Source of the DNA: Escherichia coli
Lineage (GTDB): Bacteria > Pseudomonadota > Gammaproteobacteria > Enterobacterales > Enterobacteriaceae
Reading direction: 5' to 3' (one strand)
DNA length: 64,000 nucleotides
Assembly: GCF_003334785.1 (NCBI RefSeq)
Contig: NZ_QOWV01000007.1
Shown here: one piece after another, positions 57,729 through 64,000 of the stretch
How positions within the stretch are numbered: position 1 is the first letter of the stretch
Layout of the letters: each line of letters starts with the position of its first letter
Program-made: the position numbers and the translations under genes
The notes under the pieces: generated by a model
Database searches by the model: none
The model's input: only the letters and a program-made list of their open reading frames with translations
Told to the model about the DNA's origin: nothing

Positions 57729-60326
57729 TTAAACCGCAGTCTGGAAAATCACCCCATCGGCTTTCTCGGTGTACTGAGAAAGCTGGTTGAAGTTCAGATA
57801 ACGGTAAGTATCAACGGCTGTTTTATCTACCTGCGCCACGTAGGTCTGGTACTCTTCCGGCGTCGGCAGTTTGCCAATCAGCGCCGCAACAGCCGCCAGT
57901 TCCGCAGAAGCCAGGAAGACATTCGCGCCAGTACCCAGACGGTTCGGGAAGTTACGGGTAGAGGTGGAAACCACCGTTGCACCGTCCGCCACACGCGCCT
58001 GGTTACCCATACACAGGGAACAGCCAGGGATCTCGATACGCGCACCACTCTTACCGAAGACGCTGTAGTAGCCTTCTTCGGTCAACTGTGCGGCGTCCAT
58101 ACGGGTTGGCGGTGCCACCCACAGGCGGGTCGGCAACTGACCTTTATGCGCATCCAGCAGTTTACCCGCAGCACGGAAGTGACCGATGTTGGTCATGCAG
58201 GAACCGATAAACACTTCGTCGATCTTCTCACCCTGTACCGCAGACAGCGGACGCGCGTCATCCGGGTCGTTCGGAGCACACAGGATTGGCTCTTTAATAT
58301 CCGCCAGATCGATGTCGATCACTGCCGCGTATTCCGCATCTGCATCGGCTTCCAGCAGCTCAGGATTCGCCAGCCATTTTTCCATGCCCTGAATACGACG
58401 TTCCAGGGTACGACGATCGCCGTAACCTTCCGCGATCATCCACTTCAGCAGGACGATGTTAGAGTTCAGGTATTCGATGATCGGTTCTTTGTTCAGCTTG
58501 ATGGTACAACCAGCGGCAGAACGCTCGGCGGACGCATCGGTTAGCTCAAAGGCCTGCTCAACTTTCAGATCCGGCAGACCTTCAATTTCCAGGATGCGGC
58601 CAGAGAAGATGTTTTTCTTGCCTTTCTTCTCAACGGTCAGCAGACCTTGTTTGATCGCATACAGCGGAATAGCGTGTACCAGATCGCGCAGGGTGATGCC
58701 CGGCTGCATTTTGCCTTTGAAGCGCACCAGAACGGATTCCGGCATATCAAGCGGCATTACGCCAGTTGCGGCAGCAAACGCCACCAGACCAGAACCCGCC
58801 GGGAAAGAGATACCGATCGGGAAACGGGTATGGGAGTCACCACCGGTACCGACGGTATCCGGCAGCAGCATACGGTTCAGCCAGGAGTGAATGACGCCGT
58901 CACCCGGACGCAGCGACACACCGCCACGGTTCATAATGAAGTCCGGCAGCGTGTGGTGCGTGTTCACGTCAACTGGCTTCGGATACGCCGCGGTGTGGCA
59001 GAAAGACTGCATCACCAGGTCAGCCGAGAAGCCCAGGCACGCCAGGTCTTTCAGTTCATCACGGGTCATCGGGCCGGTGGTGTCCTGGGAACCTACAGAA
59101 GTCATTTTCGGTTCACAGTACGCGCCCGGACGAATGCCTTTCACGCCACAGGCACGGCCTACCATTTTTTGCGCCAGCGAGAAGCCGCGATCGCTCTCAG
59201 CGACATCTTTCGCCTGACGGAACACATCACTGTGCGGCAGACCAAGTGCTTCACGCGCTTTGGTGGTCAGGCCACGCCCGATAATCAGCGGAATACGGCC
59301 ACCAGCACGCACTTCATCAATCAGCACGTCGGTTTTCAGTTCGAAGGTCGCCAGCAGTTCGCCGGTTTCGTGGTTACGCACTTCACCTTTGTACGGGTAA
59401 ACGTCAATCACGTCGCCCATGTTCAGGTTAGAGACGTCGACTTCGATTGGCAGTGCACCCGCGTCTTCCATCGTGTTAAAGAAGATGGGTGCAATTTTAC
59501 CGCCGAGGCACAAACCACCGCCGCGTTTGTTCGGCACATGTGGAATATCATCGCCCATAAACCACAGAACGGAGTTAGTGGCGGATTTACGCGAAGAACC
59601 CGTACCCACAACGTCACCGACGTACGCCAGCGGGAAACCTTTCTGTTGCAGAGCTTCGATTTGCTTGATCGGACCAACAACACCAGGCTGGTCTGGCTCA
59701 ATACCTTCACGGGCGTTTTTCAGCATCGCCAGCGCGTGCAGTGGGATATCCGGGCGTGACCACGCATCCGGTGCCGGAGAAAGGTCATCGGTGTTAGTTT
59801 CGCCAGTGACTTTGAAGACAGTAACGGTCAGTTTTTCAGCCAGCGCCGGGCGATTCAGGAACCATTCGGCATCCGCCCAGGACTGCATAACCTGCTTCGC
59901 ATATTCGTTGCCTGCTTTCGCTTTCTCTTCTACGTCATAGAAGTTATCGAACATCAGCAGCGTGTGAGAAAGTGCTTTGGCAGCAATAGGTGCCAGTTTG
60001 GCATCATCCAGCGCGTCGATCAGCGGATGAATGTTGTAACCACCCTGCATGGTGCCCAGCAGTTCGATGGCTTTTTCCGGAGTCAGCAGAGGGGATTTGG
60101 CTTCGCCTTTCGCGATAGCAGCCAGGAAGCCTGCTTTGACATAGGCGGCTTCATCGACGCCTGGGGGAACACGGTTGGTTAACAGATCTAACAGGAATTC
60201 TTCTTCGCCCGCGGGCGGGTTTTTCAGCAGCTCTACAAGTGCGGCCATTTGGTTTGCATCCAGGGGTTTGGGCGCAATCCCCTCAGCGGCACGCTCAGCT
60301 ACGTGCTTACGGTATTCTTCTAGCAC
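57729..60326 (-). CDS. acnB: Aconitate hydratase B (bifunctional aconitase / 2-methylisocitrate dehydratase)
   Basis: The ORF track starts at 60479; the known 865-aa protein begins (M)[21 protein letters not shown] at a GTG codon (60326). Confidence 0.96.
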
Positions 60327-60680
60327 GACGGTTCTCCTCGCTCTCATTGTCATAGTGCGGCAGGCGATTCTCTTCACGCTCCTGTGAGACAGCAGTTTGT
60401 AGGGTAAATGCCCAGTACCGCAACGGGCAGAATAGCAGGATTTTGACGAGGTGTTAATCTGTTTACAAAAAAGCAACATAAAAAAGTGGCTGAATCGTTA
60501 AGGATGGTCTAGAGATTGTTTCCCTCCGTAAAAACTTCGTTAATTCGCATGGTGATAATCACCTTTCTCAACGAATCCCAAGATTAGTCAAAATTTAAAC
60601 TACCGCCTCTTTATACTCGGATTCACAGCACCTGCGGGTGGCAGTTCGCCGACCATTGCGATTTCCTTGAGATCCGAATT

Positions 60681-62534
60681 ATGAAAATGACTTTGCCGTT
60701 TAAACCCCATGTGCTGGCGCTAATTTGCAGTGCCGGGCTTTGTGCCGCCTCTACCGGGCTATATATAAAAAGCCGCACAGTGGAAGCGCCTGTGGAACCG
60801 CAATCGACACAACTGGCTGTGTCTGACGCTGCCGCGGTTACGTTTCCTGCAACGGTTTCCGCACCTCCCGTAACACCCGCCGTCGTCAAATCCGCATTCA
60901 GCACTGCACAAATAGATCAATGGGTCGCGCCCGTCGCGCTGTATCCCGACGCCCTACTTTCGCAGGTGCTGATGGCATCAACCTATCCGACAAACGTTGC
61001 TCAAGCAGTGCAATGGTCGCACGATAATCCACTTAAACAAGGCGATGCTGCTATTCAGGCGGTATCTGACCAGCCGTGGGACGCCAGCGTTAAATCACTG
61101 GTGGCCTTTCCACAATTGATGGCATTGATGGGCGAAAACCCGCAATGGGTGCAAAACCTGGGCGATGCTTTTCTGGCCCAGCCGCAGGACGTGATGGACT
61201 CGGTACAGCGATTGCGGCAACTGGCGCAACAAACCGGCTCGCTGAAGTCATCAACCGAACAGAAAGTTATTACCACAACGAAGAAAGCTGTACCGGTAAA
61301 ACAGACAGTCACGGCACCCGTCATACCATCCAATACAGTTTTAACTGCCAACCCCGTCATTACAGAGCCGGCAACAACCGTCATTTCCATTGAGCCCGCC
61401 AATCCTGATGTGGTCTATATTCCCAACTACAACCCAACCGTGGTTTACGGGAACTGGGCCAATACTGCGTATCCGCCGGTTTATCTGCCACCACCAGCCG
61501 GAGAACCGTTTGTTGACAGCTTTGTACGCGGATTCGGCTATAGCATGGGCGTTGCTACCACGTACGCACTATTCAGCAGCATCGACTGGGACGACGACGA
61601 TCATGACCATCATCATCATGACAATGATGATTATCATCACCACGATGGCGGTCATCGTGACGGTAATGGCTGGCAACACAACGGCGACAACATCAATATC
61701 GACGTCAACAATTTCAACCGTATCACCGGTGAGCATCTTACTGATAAGAATATGGCATGGCGGCACAATCCAAACTACCGTAATGGTGTGCCCTATCATG
61801 ATCAGGATATGGCAAAGCGGTTTCATCAAACCGATGTCAACGGCGGAATGAGCGCCACGCAATTACCTGCCCCAACGCGCGACAGCCAGCGTCAGGCGGC
61901 AGCAAATCAGTTTCAGCAACGAACACACGCCGCACCAGTCATTACACGAGATACCCAACGTCAGGCAGCGGCACAGCGGTTTAATGAAGCTGAACACTAT
62001 GGGAGCTATGACGACTTCCACGACTTCAGCCGTCGCCAACCACTGACCCAGCAACAAAAGGACGCCGCTCGTCAGCGTTATCAGTCCGCCTCGCCTGAGC
62101 AGCGCCAGGCAGTTCGCGAGAGAATGCAGACTAACCCGAAGATCCAGCAGCGAAGAGAGGCAGCGCGTGAGCGCATTCAGTCCGCCTCGCCTGAGCAGCG
62201 CCAGGCGGTTCGCGAGAAAATGCAGACTAACCCGCAGAACCAGCAGCGAAGAGACGCAGCGCGTGAGCGTATTCAGTCCGCATCACCAGAGCAGCGCCAG
62301 GTGTTTAAGGAAAAAGTACAGCAGCGCCCACTGAATCAACAGCAACGTGATAACGCCCGCCAGCGTGTTCAATCGGCATCACCTGAACAACGTCAGGTTT
62401 TTCGGGAGAAAGTTCAGGAGAGCCGCCCACAACGTCTAAACGACAGTAACCATACTGTCAGGCTGAATAACGAGCAACGGTCAGCAGTATGCGAACGTCT
62501 CTCTGAACGTGGAGCAAGAAGACTGGAAAGGTAA
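60681..62534 (+). CDS. yacH: Uncharacterised secreted repeat protein (DUF3300-like)
   Basis: 617-aa ORF with signal peptide (MKMTLPFKPHVLALICSAGLCAAS), a His/Asp-rich tract, and C-terminal tandem repeats of about 32-33 aa. Confidence 0.9.
   Translation: MKMTLPFKPHVLALICSAGLCAASTGLYIKSRTVEAPVEPQSTQLAVSDAAAVTFPATVSAPPVTPAVVKSAFSTAQIDQWVAPVALYPDALLSQVLMASTYPTNVAQAVQWSHDNPLKQGDAAIQAVSDQPWDASVKSLVAFPQLMALMGENPQWVQNLGDAFLAQPQDVMDSVQRLRQLAQQTGSLKSSTEQKVITTTKKAVPVKQTVTAPVIPSNTVLTANPVITEPATTVISIEPANPDVVYIPNYNPTVVYGNWANTAYPPVYLPPPAGEPFVDSFVRGFGYSMGVATTYALFSSIDWDDDDHDHHHHDNDDYHHHDGGHRDGNGWQHNGDNINIDVNNFNRITGEHLTDKNMAWRHNPNYRNGVPYHDQDMAKRFHQTDVNGGMSATQLPAPTRDSQRQAAANQFQQRTHAAPVITRDTQRQAAAQRFNEAEHYGSYDDFHDFSRRQPLTQQQKDAARQRYQSASPEQRQAVRERMQTNPKIQQRREAARERIQSASPEQRQAVREKMQTNPQNQQRRDAARERIQSASPEQRQVFKEKVQQRPLNQQQRDNARQRVQSASPEQRQVFREKVQESRPQRLNDSNHTVRLNNEQRSAVCERLSERGARRLER
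62061..62446 (+). repeat. Intragenic tandem repeats in yacH (about 4 units of 96-99 bp)
   Basis: Units 1 and 2 are near-identical at DNA level (tcagtccgcctcgcctgagcagcgccaggc[a/g]gttcgcgaga[g/a]aatgcagactaacccg); units 3 and 4 are diverged. Each encodes AARERIQSASPEQRQAVREKMQTNP-QQRR-like segments. Confidence 0.85.
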
Positions 62535-62544
62535 ATTGCAGACG

Positions 62545-62576
62545 TAAAAAAAGCGGCGTGGTTAGCCGCTTTTTTA
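62545..62576. terminator. Bidirectional Rho-independent terminator between convergent yacH and lpdA
   Basis: A-run, stem agcggc-gtggtt-agccgct, then T-run (aaaaaaagcggcgtggttagccgcttttttaa); readable as a terminator on both strands. Confidence 0.8.
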
Positions 62577-62604
62577 ATTGCCGGATGTTCCGGCAAACGA
62601 AAAA

Positions 62605-64000
62605 TTACTTCTTCTTCGCTTTCGGGTTCGGCAGGTCGGTAATGCTACCTTCGAACACTTCTGCCGCCAGGCCCACAGACTCGTGCAGAGTCGGGTGCGC
62701 GTGGATGGTCAGTGCGATGTCTTCAGCATCACAACCCATTTCGATTGCCAGGCCGATTTCACCCAGCAGCTCGCCGCCGTTAGTACCGACAATCGCACCA
62801 CCGATCACACGGTGAGATTCTTTGTCGAAAATCAGCTTGGTCATACCGTCTGCGCAGTCGGAAGCGATAGCACGACCAGAAGCAGCCCACGGGAAGGTGG
62901 CGGTTTCATAGCTGATGCCTTTCTCTTTCGCTTCTTTCTCAGTCAGACCCACCCATGCAACTTCTGGTTCGGTATAGGCGATGGACGGGATAACTTTCGG
63001 ATCGAAGTAGTGTTTCTTACCGGCGATAACTTCAGCGGCAACGTGACCTTCGTGAACACCTTTGTGTGCCAGCATCGGTTGACCGACGATATCGCCGATA
63101 GCAAAGATGTGCGGTACGTTGGTACGCAGCTGTTTGTCAACGCGGATGAAACCACGGTCGTCAACTTCCACGCCTGCTTTGCCTGCGTCGAGGTTTTTAC
63201 CGTTCGGCACACGACCAATCGCTACCAGCACGGCGTCGTAACGCTGCGGTTCAGCGGGTGCTTTTTTGCCTTCCATCGTCACATAAATGCCGTCTTCTTT
63301 CGCTTCAACGGCGGTAACTTTGGTTTCCAGCATCAGGTTGAATTTCTTGCTGATACGCTTGGTGAAGACTTTAACGATGTCTTTGTCAGCTGCCGGGATA
63401 ACCTGGTCGAACATTTCAACCACGTCAATCTGTGAACCCAGCGCGTGGTAAACGGTGCCCATTTCCAGACCGATGATACCGCCACCCATTACCAGCAGGC
63501 GTTCTGGTACTTCTTTCAGTTCCAGCGCGTCAGTGGAGTCCCAGATACGCGGATCTTCATGCGGAATAAACGGCAGTTGGATCGGGCGAGAACCCGCTGC
63601 AATGATCGCGTTGTCGAAGTTGATCACGGTTTTGCCGTTCTCACCTTCAACTTCCAGGGTGTTAGCCCCGGTGAATTTACCCAGACCGTTGACCACTTTG
63701 ACTTTGCGGCCTTTCGCCATACCAGCCAGACCACCGGTCAGCTGATTGATCACTTTCTCTTTCCAGGTACGAATCTTGTCGATATCGGTTTTCGGTTCGC
63801 CGAAGACGATACCGTGTTCAGCCAGCGCTTTGGCTTCTTCGATAACTTTTGCTACGTGCAGCAGTGCTTTAGAAGGGATACAGCCGACGTTCAGGCAAAC
63901 ACCGCCAAGGGTGTTGTAACGTTCTACGATTACGGTTTCCAGACCTAAATCAGCGCAACGGAAGGCAGCGGAGTAACCTGCGGGGCCTGCCCCAAGTACC
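62605..64000 (-). CDS. lpdA: Dihydrolipoyl dehydrogenase (E3 of PDH/OGDH), 5'-truncated at window edge
   Basis: The reading frame runs to the window end (…VLGAGPAGYSAAFRCADLGLETVIVERYNTLGGVCLNVGCIPSKALL… FAD/disulfide motifs); about the first 10 codons lie outside. C-terminus …DLPNPKAKKK. Confidence 0.95.
   Translation of the reverse strand, partial: VLGAGPAGYSAAFRCADLGLETVIVERYNTLGGVCLNVGCIPSKALLHVAKVIEEAKALAEHGIVFGEPKTDIDKIRTWKEKVINQLTGGLAGMAKGRKVKVVNGLGKFTGANTLEVEGENGKTVINFDNAIIAAGSRPIQLPFIPHEDPRIWDSTDALELKEVPERLLVMGGGIIGLEMGTVYHALGSQIDVVEMFDQVIPAADKDIVKVFTKRISKKFNLMLETKVTAVEAKEDGIYVTMEGKKAPAEPQRYDAVLVAIGRVPNGKNLDAGKAGVEVDDRGFIRVDKQLRTNVPHIFAIGDIVGQPMLAHKGVHEGHVAAEVIAGKKHYFDPKVIPSIAYTEPEVAWVGLTEKEAKEKGISYETATFPWAASGRAIASDCADGMTKLIFDKESHRVIGGAIVGTNGGELLGEIGLAIEMGCDAEDIALTIHAHPTLHESVGLAAEVFEGSITDLPNPKAKKK

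Follow-up and report, generated by a model that had tools for sequence, protein, structure and literature searches.

An in-frame 96-nucleotide coding minisatellite of variable copy number in Escherichia coli yacH

Results and Discussion

The yacH locus and its repeat array

We analyzed a 64,000-nucleotide (nt) stretch of an Escherichia coli contig (the window), in which an open reading frame (ORF) of 617 amino acids (aa) plus stop, at positions 60681 to 62534 on the plus strand, is flanked by acnB (57729 to 60479) and by lpdA (62605 to 64000), the latter convergent with it. The ORF list, a Pfam match to DUF3300, and RefSeq annotation identify this coding sequence as yacH; its product is 100% identical to a very large cluster of 617-aa E. 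coli proteins named "DUF3300 domain-containing protein," and RefSeq genomes label the gene yacH. The C-terminal half of the encoded protein contains a tandem array of 96-nt units that stays in the reading frame and differs in copy number between strains, and this array is the subject of the present analysis.

Window positions 62061 to 62444 consist of four head-to-tail 96-nt units on the plus strand, in frame 0 of yacH, starting at codons 461, 493, 525, and 557. The encoded 32-aa units are A1 (DAARQRYQSASPEQRQAVRERMQTNPKIQQRR; aa 461 to 492, positions 62061 to 62156), A2 (EAARERIQSASPEQRQAVREKMQTNPQNQQRR; aa 493 to 524, 62157 to 62252), B (DAARERIQSASPEQRQVFKEKVQQRPLNQQQR; aa 525 to 556, 62253 to 62348), and C (DNARQRVQSASPEQRQVFREKVQESRPQRLND; aa 557 to 588, 62349 to 62444). 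An initial annotation, made from the sequence alone, had described about four tandem units of 96 to 99 bp at 62061 to 62446 in the C-terminal half of YacH. The four in-frame units are there, but all are exactly 96 nt long, and the array ends at 62444.

Nucleotide identity between units is 89% for A1/A2, 74% for A2/B, 62% for B/C, and about 55% for A/C, with C the most diverged, compared with 19 to 42% for control 96-nt blocks outside the array treated in the same way. Tandem Repeats Finder reports a period of 96 at 62081 to 62301 (2.3 copies, 92% matches, score 379), and the self-similarity of the YacH protein at a lag of 32 residues is 2.16 against a shuffle maximum of 0.15 ± 0.08, a difference of more than 20 standard deviations. 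Between A1 and A2, 11 of the 96 nt are different and the longest identical in-register run is 30 nt, so the earlier description of these two units as almost identical was overstated. Within the 32-aa unit, lags of 15 and 17 residues are also significant, which indicates that the unit is composed of two related half-units. Copies of a half-motif flank the array on both sides: two degenerate "TRDxQRQAAA" motifs (RDxQRQAA) with a spacer lie 5' of it (aa 397 to 460, 61869 to 62060, plus strand), and the basic C-terminal tail (aa 589 to 617, 62445 to 62531, plus strand) carries an extra helix-a-like motif, NNEQRSAVCERL. The RDxQRQAA sequence is nearly invariant in Enterobacteriaceae orthologues and has a relative in RDAARQRAQ, the core of the betaproteobacterial repeats, and the tail motif LNxEQRSAxRER is likewise kept in orthologues.

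Copy number and allele types in E. coli

Of 5,426 complete E. coli genomes, 5,417 matched a 701-nt query that spans the array, and an evenly spaced sample of 60 records from these was scored; a reciprocal sample of 60 genomes used a three-unit allele as the query. Copy number was read from the spans of the records. We set aside a junction-specific BLAST census (A-to-A junction, 147 nt), which was confounded because the tool joined overlapping pieces and divergent alleles fell below megablast sensitivity. With the 701-nt query, 32 records spanned 701 nt, 21 spanned 605 nt (exactly 96 nt less), 6 were partial alignments, and one further record with a 671-nt span was confirmed to have four units (L006). 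The three-unit query returned 23 three-unit A-B-C arrays, 26 four-unit arrays plus 4 four-unit genomes with unjoined pieces (the one checked, L022, is A-A-B-C), 5 records spanning 575 nt, probably A-A-C', 1 frameshifted deletion, and 1 partial match, for totals of 30/60 with four units and 28/60 with three. Roughly 50 to 55% of complete E. coli genomes thus carry four units and about 45% carry three, making the array a PCR-sizeable marker that splits the species roughly in half. The initial annotation had proposed a locus prone to repeat-number change by slippage or recombination, to be checked by counting units across E. coli; the count does vary, in the 701- and 605-nt spans and in sequenced alleles of three, four, and five units.

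Five allele types, all of three to five units, have been sequenced: A-A-B-C (the window and L022), A-B-C (L001 to L003; 585 to 587 aa), in which one A unit (A1 or A2) is missing, A-A-C' (L004 and L005), in which B is fused with C, A-A-A-C' (L006), and the rare five-unit A-A-A-B-C, found in the protein database as a 648-aa protein on 2 contigs (P0006). Other length alleles in the protein database carry a duplicated part of one unit (P0049) or 4 duplicated residues (P0047). Comparison of alleles establishes these minisatellite dynamics. Outside the array, only 3 residues separate the five-unit P0006 from the four-unit P0108, indicating that at least some unit changes are recent, whereas all sampled alleles at least 99.7% identical to the window carry four units, indicating that architecture mostly travels with the allele lineage. 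We take the array to be polymorphic among alleles, with new events arising occasionally, and not to act as a rapid switch. Unit changes preserve the reading frame, and no frame or promoter-spacing switch of the kind that defines phase-variable contingency loci was found; the sole frameshifted array, L021, has lost 98 nt in a rare deletion that puts B out of frame behind A1, and it carries a pseudogene annotation.

With similar head-to-tail units, a unit length of 96 nt that equals 32 codons in frame, and a copy number that varies between strains, the array is a coding minisatellite, or variable-number tandem repeat (VNTR). In-frame coding minisatellites in bacterial envelope and surface protein genes are exploited in multilocus VNTR analysis (MLVA) typing, and coding repeat-number variation is in itself an ordinary phenomenon; the yacH array belongs to a known type, the coding VNTR in an envelope protein gene. 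It resembles other coding VNTRs in its head-to-tail units of a multiple of three, its strain-variable count, and its gain, loss, or fusion of whole units, but differs from typical ones in its narrow range (3 to 5 units), slow turnover, and diverged units (55 to 89% identity). Our literature search, the results of which were swamped by author names beginning with "Yach," turned up no publication that deals with the yacH repeats or with the gene in VNTR or MLVA typing. For annotation pipelines, the polymorphism means that YacH lengths of 585 to 662 aa are legitimate and not errors.

Age of the units and selective constraint

Across genomes the units cluster by position, first units with first units, B with B, and C with C. 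A cryptic-clade Escherichia (L007) and E. albertii (L008) each carry three units, similar to A1, A2, and C, which implies that the array is older than E. coli and that B is an E. coli-specific addition. By this comparison the array dates back at least to the origin of the genus Escherichia, and the suggestion that A1 and A2 arose by recent duplication finds no support for the window allele, since A1-like, A2-like, and C-like units already exist in both of these lineages. The identity of A1 and A2 in K-12 (89%) nevertheless exceeds that of orthologous units between species (76 to 82%), so some homogenization between the two units may occur.

Pairwise Nei-Gojobori ratios of nonsynonymous to synonymous divergence (dN/dS) are 0.07 to 0.27 for the array or its first unit, 0.05 to 0.11 for the DUF3300 core, and 0.11 to 0.20 for the middle region. 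Nine of the 32 columns are invariant among 13 Escherichia units (A3, R6, Q8, S9, P12, E13, Q14, R15, and Q16), and positions 3, 7, 18, and 22 are hydrophobic in every Escherichia unit compared. Low dN/dS together with invariant columns indicates that the amino acid sequence of the array is selected, slightly less strictly than the DUF3300 core, and on these measures the module is under purifying selection. The recurring module of about 32 aa recognized in the initial annotation is therefore conserved within Escherichia; neither of the outcomes that would have counted against that annotation, a repeat number that never varies and a disordered linker lacking a conserved module, was observed.

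The gene as a whole diverges quickly. Between K-12 and the three-unit allele L001, dS is 0.40 in the DUF3300 core and 0.07 in lpdA; between K-12 and E. albertii it is 1.1, against 0.25 in lpdA and 0.38 in acnB. Overall, yacH divergence is 2 to 6 times (synonymous) and about 10 times (nonsynonymous) that of acnB and lpdA, and AcnB and LpdA are 91 to 99% identical to their orthologues in other species and genera, compared with 48 to 59% for YacH in other genera. Weak codon bias may account for part of this excess.

Domain organization and predicted structure of YacH

Pfam recognizes a single domain in YacH, DUF3300 (PF11737; aa 75 to 333, 60903 to 61679, plus strand; E value of 1.5e-78, model positions 2 to 227 of 227), and scans of the protein or region with NCBIfam, PADLOC (antiphage defense), and Rfam gave zero matches. 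The DUF3300 core is modeled confidently from a 100-sequence alignment, with a predicted template modeling score of 0.74 and a predicted local distance difference test (pLDDT) score above 85 over aa ∼70 to 270. YacH also has an acidic His/Asp tract (aa 303 to 335, 61587 to 61685, plus strand) with a net charge of −9, 10 His, and runs of GAC/CAT/GAT triplets.

The sole hydrophobic segment lies at aa ∼9 to 29 (60705 to 60767, plus strand); in a Kyte-Doolittle profile with a 19-residue window it peaks at 1.91, and every other window is at or below 1.25. Residues L14 and C16 of the N-terminal segment are invariant in orthologues, and the segment has a possible A-A-S cleavage site. It fits a signal peptide, as the initial annotation had it, or a signal anchor. 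Because there is only one such segment, the remainder of the protein would lie on one side of the membrane, most simply in the periplasm; a second transmembrane helix at aa 280 to 298, which would place the tail in the cytoplasm, is not supported by hydropathy. Codon 605 of the window (62493 to 62495) encodes Cys (SAVCERLSE), and the more divergent alleles examined have Arg there (SAVRERLSE); Cys605 is the only Cys of YacH besides Cys16 and Cys21 of the N-terminal hydrophobic segment.

The array itself contains 29 Lys plus Arg against 16 Asp plus Glu (net charge of +13, pI of 11.5) and 28 Gln, in agreement with its earlier description as charged and Q/R rich. In the AlphaFold2 model of the full protein each unit is predicted as two helices with breaks at S-A-S-P and T-N-P, at pLDDT values of 50 to 65, so the helical module proposed earlier is recovered as a prediction, at low confidence. 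The sequence S/T-P-E-Q is a common helix N-capping sequence.

The DUF3300 family and its DUF2950 partner

Our species-level locus scan covered at least 12 loci and left out the Salmonella, Citrobacter, and Klebsiella orthologues. Among the matches listed, orthologues at the acnB-lpdA position occur in Atlantibacter, Kluyvera, Enterobacter, Franconibacter, and further Enterobacteriaceae. Their N-terminal two-thirds align well with YacH, and their C termini carry 18- to 19-aa repeats such as NPTAQQQQRRDAAKNELQ or STPEQRQARRENVQQRV; this period was seen in Atlantibacter, Kluyvera, Enterobacter, and UBA5654, whereas the 32-aa period with its 15/17 sublags was confined, again among the matches listed, to Escherichia. 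After the 18- to 19-aa repeats comes a single composite element, in Atlantibacter PTAQQQQRREAVQQHRATITPEQRQQRRETL, which aligns with the whole Escherichia unit.

In a betaproteobacterial set of 120 DUF3300 clusters, 42 proteins showed significant periodicity, and in 30 of these the strongest period was 12 aa, with the repeat core SADRDAARQRAQ; the proteins of the set have cleavable-looking signal peptides with AxA-type sites and a Gly/Arg-rich tail after the repeats. The Escherichia unit opens with this same repeat core (RDAARERIQSA). Other DUF3300 (PF11737) proteins share with YacH a putative export signal, the core, an NINVN/WxHNP block, and basic Q/R-rich repeats around R-D-A-A-R-Q-R-x-Q, but have units of 12 aa or 18 to 19 aa in place of the 32-aa (15 + 17) unit of Escherichia, and Escherichia YacH lacks the ANALSGNDSRS block, Gly/Arg tail, and adjacent DUF2950 gene of other DUF3300 systems. 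By alignment, the Escherichia array is an amplified composite motif that joins the family-wide core RDAARxRxQSA to the helix start S/T-P-E-Q-R-Q-x-h-R-E-x-h-Q, a motif present as a single copy in other Enterobacteriaceae, with 12-aa or 18- to 19-aa repeats elsewhere in DUF3300 proteins. Most simply, a basic C terminus rich in repeats is a general feature of DUF3300 proteins, and one composite 32-aa element of it was amplified in Escherichia.

DUF3300 genes normally have a DUF2950 gene behind them. It lies directly 3' of the DUF3300 gene in two Betaproteobacteria (L019, 7385 to 8284; L020, 7378 to 8280) and in Atlantibacter (L009, 4645 to 5493; Pfam E value of 3.2e-94), and Enterobacter soli (L012) has a similar ORF, outside the Pfam scan, at the same position (∼4604 to 5398). 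In root nodule bacteria, DUF3300 homologues have been reported to carry signal peptides, and DUF3300 and DUF2950 genes to be universally colocalized, secreted, and uncharacterized (PMC4653623). No DUF2950 gene is found 3' of yacH in the window, where 70 nt (62535 to 62604) with a terminator precede lpdA, and the Atlantibacter DUF2950 gene had zero matches in the 5,426 E. coli genomes by blastn in its "distant" mode. Escherichia yacH looks like the orphaned half of a two-gene DUF3300-DUF2950 module.

Sequence relatives of the repeats outside DUF3300

A search of 1.84 billion representatives with the C-terminal 221 aa of YacH gave 25 matches at an E value of ≤1e-3, the strongest of which were YacH fragments. 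The non-YacH matches (E values of 3e-4 to 9e-4) were small secreted proteins with tandem (L/M)TPEQRxQMRERMQQ repeats, together with a protein that combines an OmpA domain with 33-aa LTPEQRQEIRE repeats and a large protein with LSPEQ repeats; one of these relatives, P0141, matches Pfam LTXXQ (4e-5) and DUF3106 (8.9e-4). The small secreted proteins, some of which match DUF3106, share with YacH the PEQRQxxRExxQ helix and an N-terminal export signal but have units of ∼15 to 16 aa, the RDAARERIQSA half and DUF3300 both being absent. This likeness may be a convergence through composition and helix-capping motifs. The metagenomic protein P0132 (494 aa) is OmpA/MotB-like and anchored in the membrane, and it matches Zorya ZorB2 weakly. 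Between its transmembrane helix and its peptidoglycan-binding domain lie eight tandem repeats of 33 aa (LSRLTPEQRQEIREGGVPVDPQRLETLEDAERA), a layout which shows that helical repeats of the PEQRQ type serve as periplasmic spacers in other proteins.

The LTXXQ family (CpxP, Spy, and ZraP) invites comparison with YacH as envelope proteins with reported Cpx regulation, basic helical character, and an S/T-x-x-Q helix start followed by R/K-Q-x-h-R-x-h-h-Q that aligns with the motif. CpxP and Spy form dimeric helical hairpins with two motifs, and CpxP has a basic concave surface. By hhalign, SASPEQRQAVRERMQ falls exactly on the first LTXXQ motif in CpxP (SLTEHQRQQMRDLMQ, probability of 11.5%) and in Spy (LTDAQKQQIREIM, probability of 2.7%); the motif aligns as A-S-P-E-Q in the Escherichia unit, with T changed to S, Q kept, and L changed to A. 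Pfam LTXXQ (PF07813), in turn, had no match to YacH at an E value of ≤10 or to 11 orthologue tails at ≤0.1, PDB sequence and profile searches with YacH did not retrieve CpxP, Spy, or ZraP, and the PDB profile matches of the tail were basic ribosomal-protein tails only (E values of ≥0.035). DUF3106 (PF11304) is detected faintly, with an independent E value of 0.89 for the E. coli tail and a best value of 6.7e-3 in one orthologue. CpxP and Spy are small (166 and 161 aa in the versions used), whereas YacH has 4 to 5 tandem copies on an unrelated 330-aa domain. Because the resemblance is confined to a motif-level alignment, we did not retain the YacH module as a CpxP/Spy/ZraP homologue and treat the likeness as a weak analogy. 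Nor does any Pfam repeat family or solved solenoid match the tail as tetratricopeptide-like helical solenoid repeats.

A model for the array and its alternatives

We think it rather probable that the array is an in-frame coding minisatellite altered by misalignment of its units and that its product is a basic, helical envelope tail that binds an anionic partner. Misaligned units would allow unequal homologous recombination, or replication slippage over identical runs of up to 30 nt, and would yield whole-unit gains, losses, and fusions that keep the reading frame. Each unit may form two short helices, PQNQQRRDAARERIQSA and PEQRQAVREKMQT, split by the capping or break motifs S-x-S-P and T-N-P, with a small conserved hydrophobic seam predicted to run through unit positions 3, 7, 10, 17, 18, and 22. 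Together the units would make an elongated, strongly basic helical tail in the cell envelope, with a charge of about +3 per unit, for which candidate anionic partners are the His/Asp tract of YacH itself, envelope polyanions, or a partner protein. With each unit gained or lost, the tail would then become longer or shorter and its charge would shift, but it would not be destroyed. How the tail folds, where it lies, and what it binds are matters of inference.

Several observations weigh against this model. The AlphaFold2 model of full-length YacH, from a 12-sequence alignment, has a mean pLDDT of 40.6, too poor for fold comparison, and with the repeats at 50 to 65, helicity and helix packing are not established by the prediction. 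Individual helices are no more amphipathic than shuffled controls, and the hydrophobic moment of the tail motif (0.47) is matched by 5% of shuffles, a marginal result; we accordingly dropped the idea that the units are amphipathic helices on a membrane surface. One paper lists a predicted localization of "Extracellular" for YacH, and another calls it an "outer membrane" protein. Both the rapid turnover of unit type and period between genera and the high frequency of three- and four-unit alleles alike, with no known phenotype, fit weak constraint on the exact architecture, and two yacH alleles are pseudogenes (L005 and L021). Recombination and slippage would both fit the alleles, identical architectures on different backgrounds could reflect either independent origin or spread by recombination, and the function assigned to the product is inferential.

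Many of these same features would be expected if the region were a neutral, largely disordered, low-complexity spacer whose polymorphism reflects drift in a weakly expressed, fast-evolving gene. Low structure confidence, the lack of amphipathicity, differences in unit type and period between genera, the commonness of both main alleles, the excess divergence of yacH over acnB and lpdA, and the pseudogene alleles all agree with such a spacer, yet the dN/dS of the array is not near 1, the nine invariant columns and hydrophobic positions are kept in E. coli, the cryptic clade, and E. albertii, a region of basic repeats persists throughout the DUF3300 family, in Beta- and Gammaproteobacteria alike, and the common alleles are all in frame. 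We regard neutrality as unlikely, if deserving of serious attention. It is improbable that the units are LTXXQ-type modules, that is, tandem client-binding helices, whose number would set capacity, like those of CpxP, Spy, and ZraP, periplasmic chaperones and adaptors under Cpx control. The hhalign placement, the LTXXQ match of P0141 among non-YacH relatives that are small secreted repeat proteins, the reported CpxR regulation of yacH, and the basic array would suit that idea; the negative Pfam and PDB searches and low hhalign values tell against it, as do the replacement of the motif Leu by Ala in Escherichia, the presence of the generic S/T-P-E-Q N-cap in unrelated repeats as well (P0135), and the origin of the phmmer E values (3e-4 to 9e-4) in compositionally biased repeats.

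A contingency or antigenic-variation locus, with repeats selected for the mutability of an exposed envelope protein, would account for the three insertion-deletion hot spots of yacH (the 96-nt array, the His/Asp tract, and a 135-nt duplication/deletion), its high allelic diversity, and a reported frameshift in the Salmonella His/Asp tract (PMC10048834). We consider this very improbable given that 96 nt is a multiple of three and provides no expression switch, that only 3 to 5 units are seen, that architecture follows allele lineage, with four units in all alleles closest to the window, that the bulk of the protein is probably periplasmic and not surface exposed, and that overall dN/dS is well below 1. 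Collapsed or expanded repeats in assemblies could in principle produce copy-number differences, and some rare variants do occur on few contigs (P0006, 2 contigs) or are flagged as frameshifted (L021). Such artifacts are scarcely credible as the general explanation, and the common alleles contradict them: each main state is present in thousands of complete genomes, the states go with distinct flanking allele sequences, three units are also found in other Escherichia species, and the units, at 89% identity or less, are distinct enough for short-read assembly.

Returning to the minisatellite with a basic envelope tail, YacH is an uncharacterized E. coli protein that has been linked to the Cpx regulon and to survival of cationic peptides. 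The gene has been reported to be CpxR regulated and repressed by protamine, and its deletion to raise survival of protamine (PMC9600279); yacH was lowered in a rob mutant under butanol stress (PMC7537768) and was listed as one of the transcripts that a cathelicidin peptide affects in UTI89 (PMC6737244). As a speculation to which we give little chance of being correct in full, the tail might be a modular polycationic binder, its helices perhaps distant LTXXQ/DUF3106 kin, in which unit number tunes engagement with anionic components or unfolded proteins of the envelope, three- and four-unit alleles are kept by selection tied to exposure to cationic antimicrobial peptides, and amplification followed the loss of DUF2950. 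A constrained, copy-variable basic array, a lineage-specific version of a family repeat region, and the loss of the DUF2950 partner provide experimental handles on the protein, and the natural three-, four-, and five-unit alleles are ready-made variants for experiments.

Other variable sites and the 3' flank of yacH

The His/Asp tract (DDDDHDHHHHDNDDYHHHDGGHRDGN), with its GAC/CAT/GAT triplet runs, is far more variable in length than the 96-nt array, with 24 different sequences of 18 to 40 aa, including 7-aa DNDDYHH duplications, among 120 listed E. coli protein clusters. A Salmonella isolate has been reported with an 8-bp frameshifting deletion in yacH (850_857delGATCATCA, Asp284fs; PMC10048834), which looks like it lies in the corresponding GAT/CAT-rich region. 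A further in-frame polymorphism of 45 aa is bounded by ACGCCGC direct repeats on the plus strand at 61927 to 61933 and, within the first codons of unit A1, at 62062 to 62068, 135 nt apart. The duplication allele is 662 aa long (P0001 to P0003, 27 contigs), and the reciprocal 45-aa deletion occurs in strain H22 (L005), whose yacH is a RefSeq pseudogene with an internal stop.

A symmetric hairpin at 62546 to 62575 (A7-GCGGC-loop-GCCGC-T6; fold of −15.2 kcal/mol) lies where the convergent genes yacH and lpdA meet. Common to both genes and assigned to neither strand, it looks like a bidirectional intrinsic terminator; it is absent from the list of the consensus terminator scanner. In E. albertii (L008, 4989 to 5261, minus strand) and Atlantibacter (L009, 5540 to 5824, minus strand), a gene for a small 90- to 94-aa protein sits after yacH (or the DUF2950 gene) and before lpdA; the protein has a signal-peptide-like start, MK..L.TT...A..FSG...AAD..IPWA.NSGGTES.HIAAMG.DLN.QHQ, and its gene is absent from the K-12-type window. 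In strain MRY15-117 (L006, 2514 to 3494), an IS621 (IS110-like) transposase gene lies just 3' of the yacH stop codon, before lpdA.

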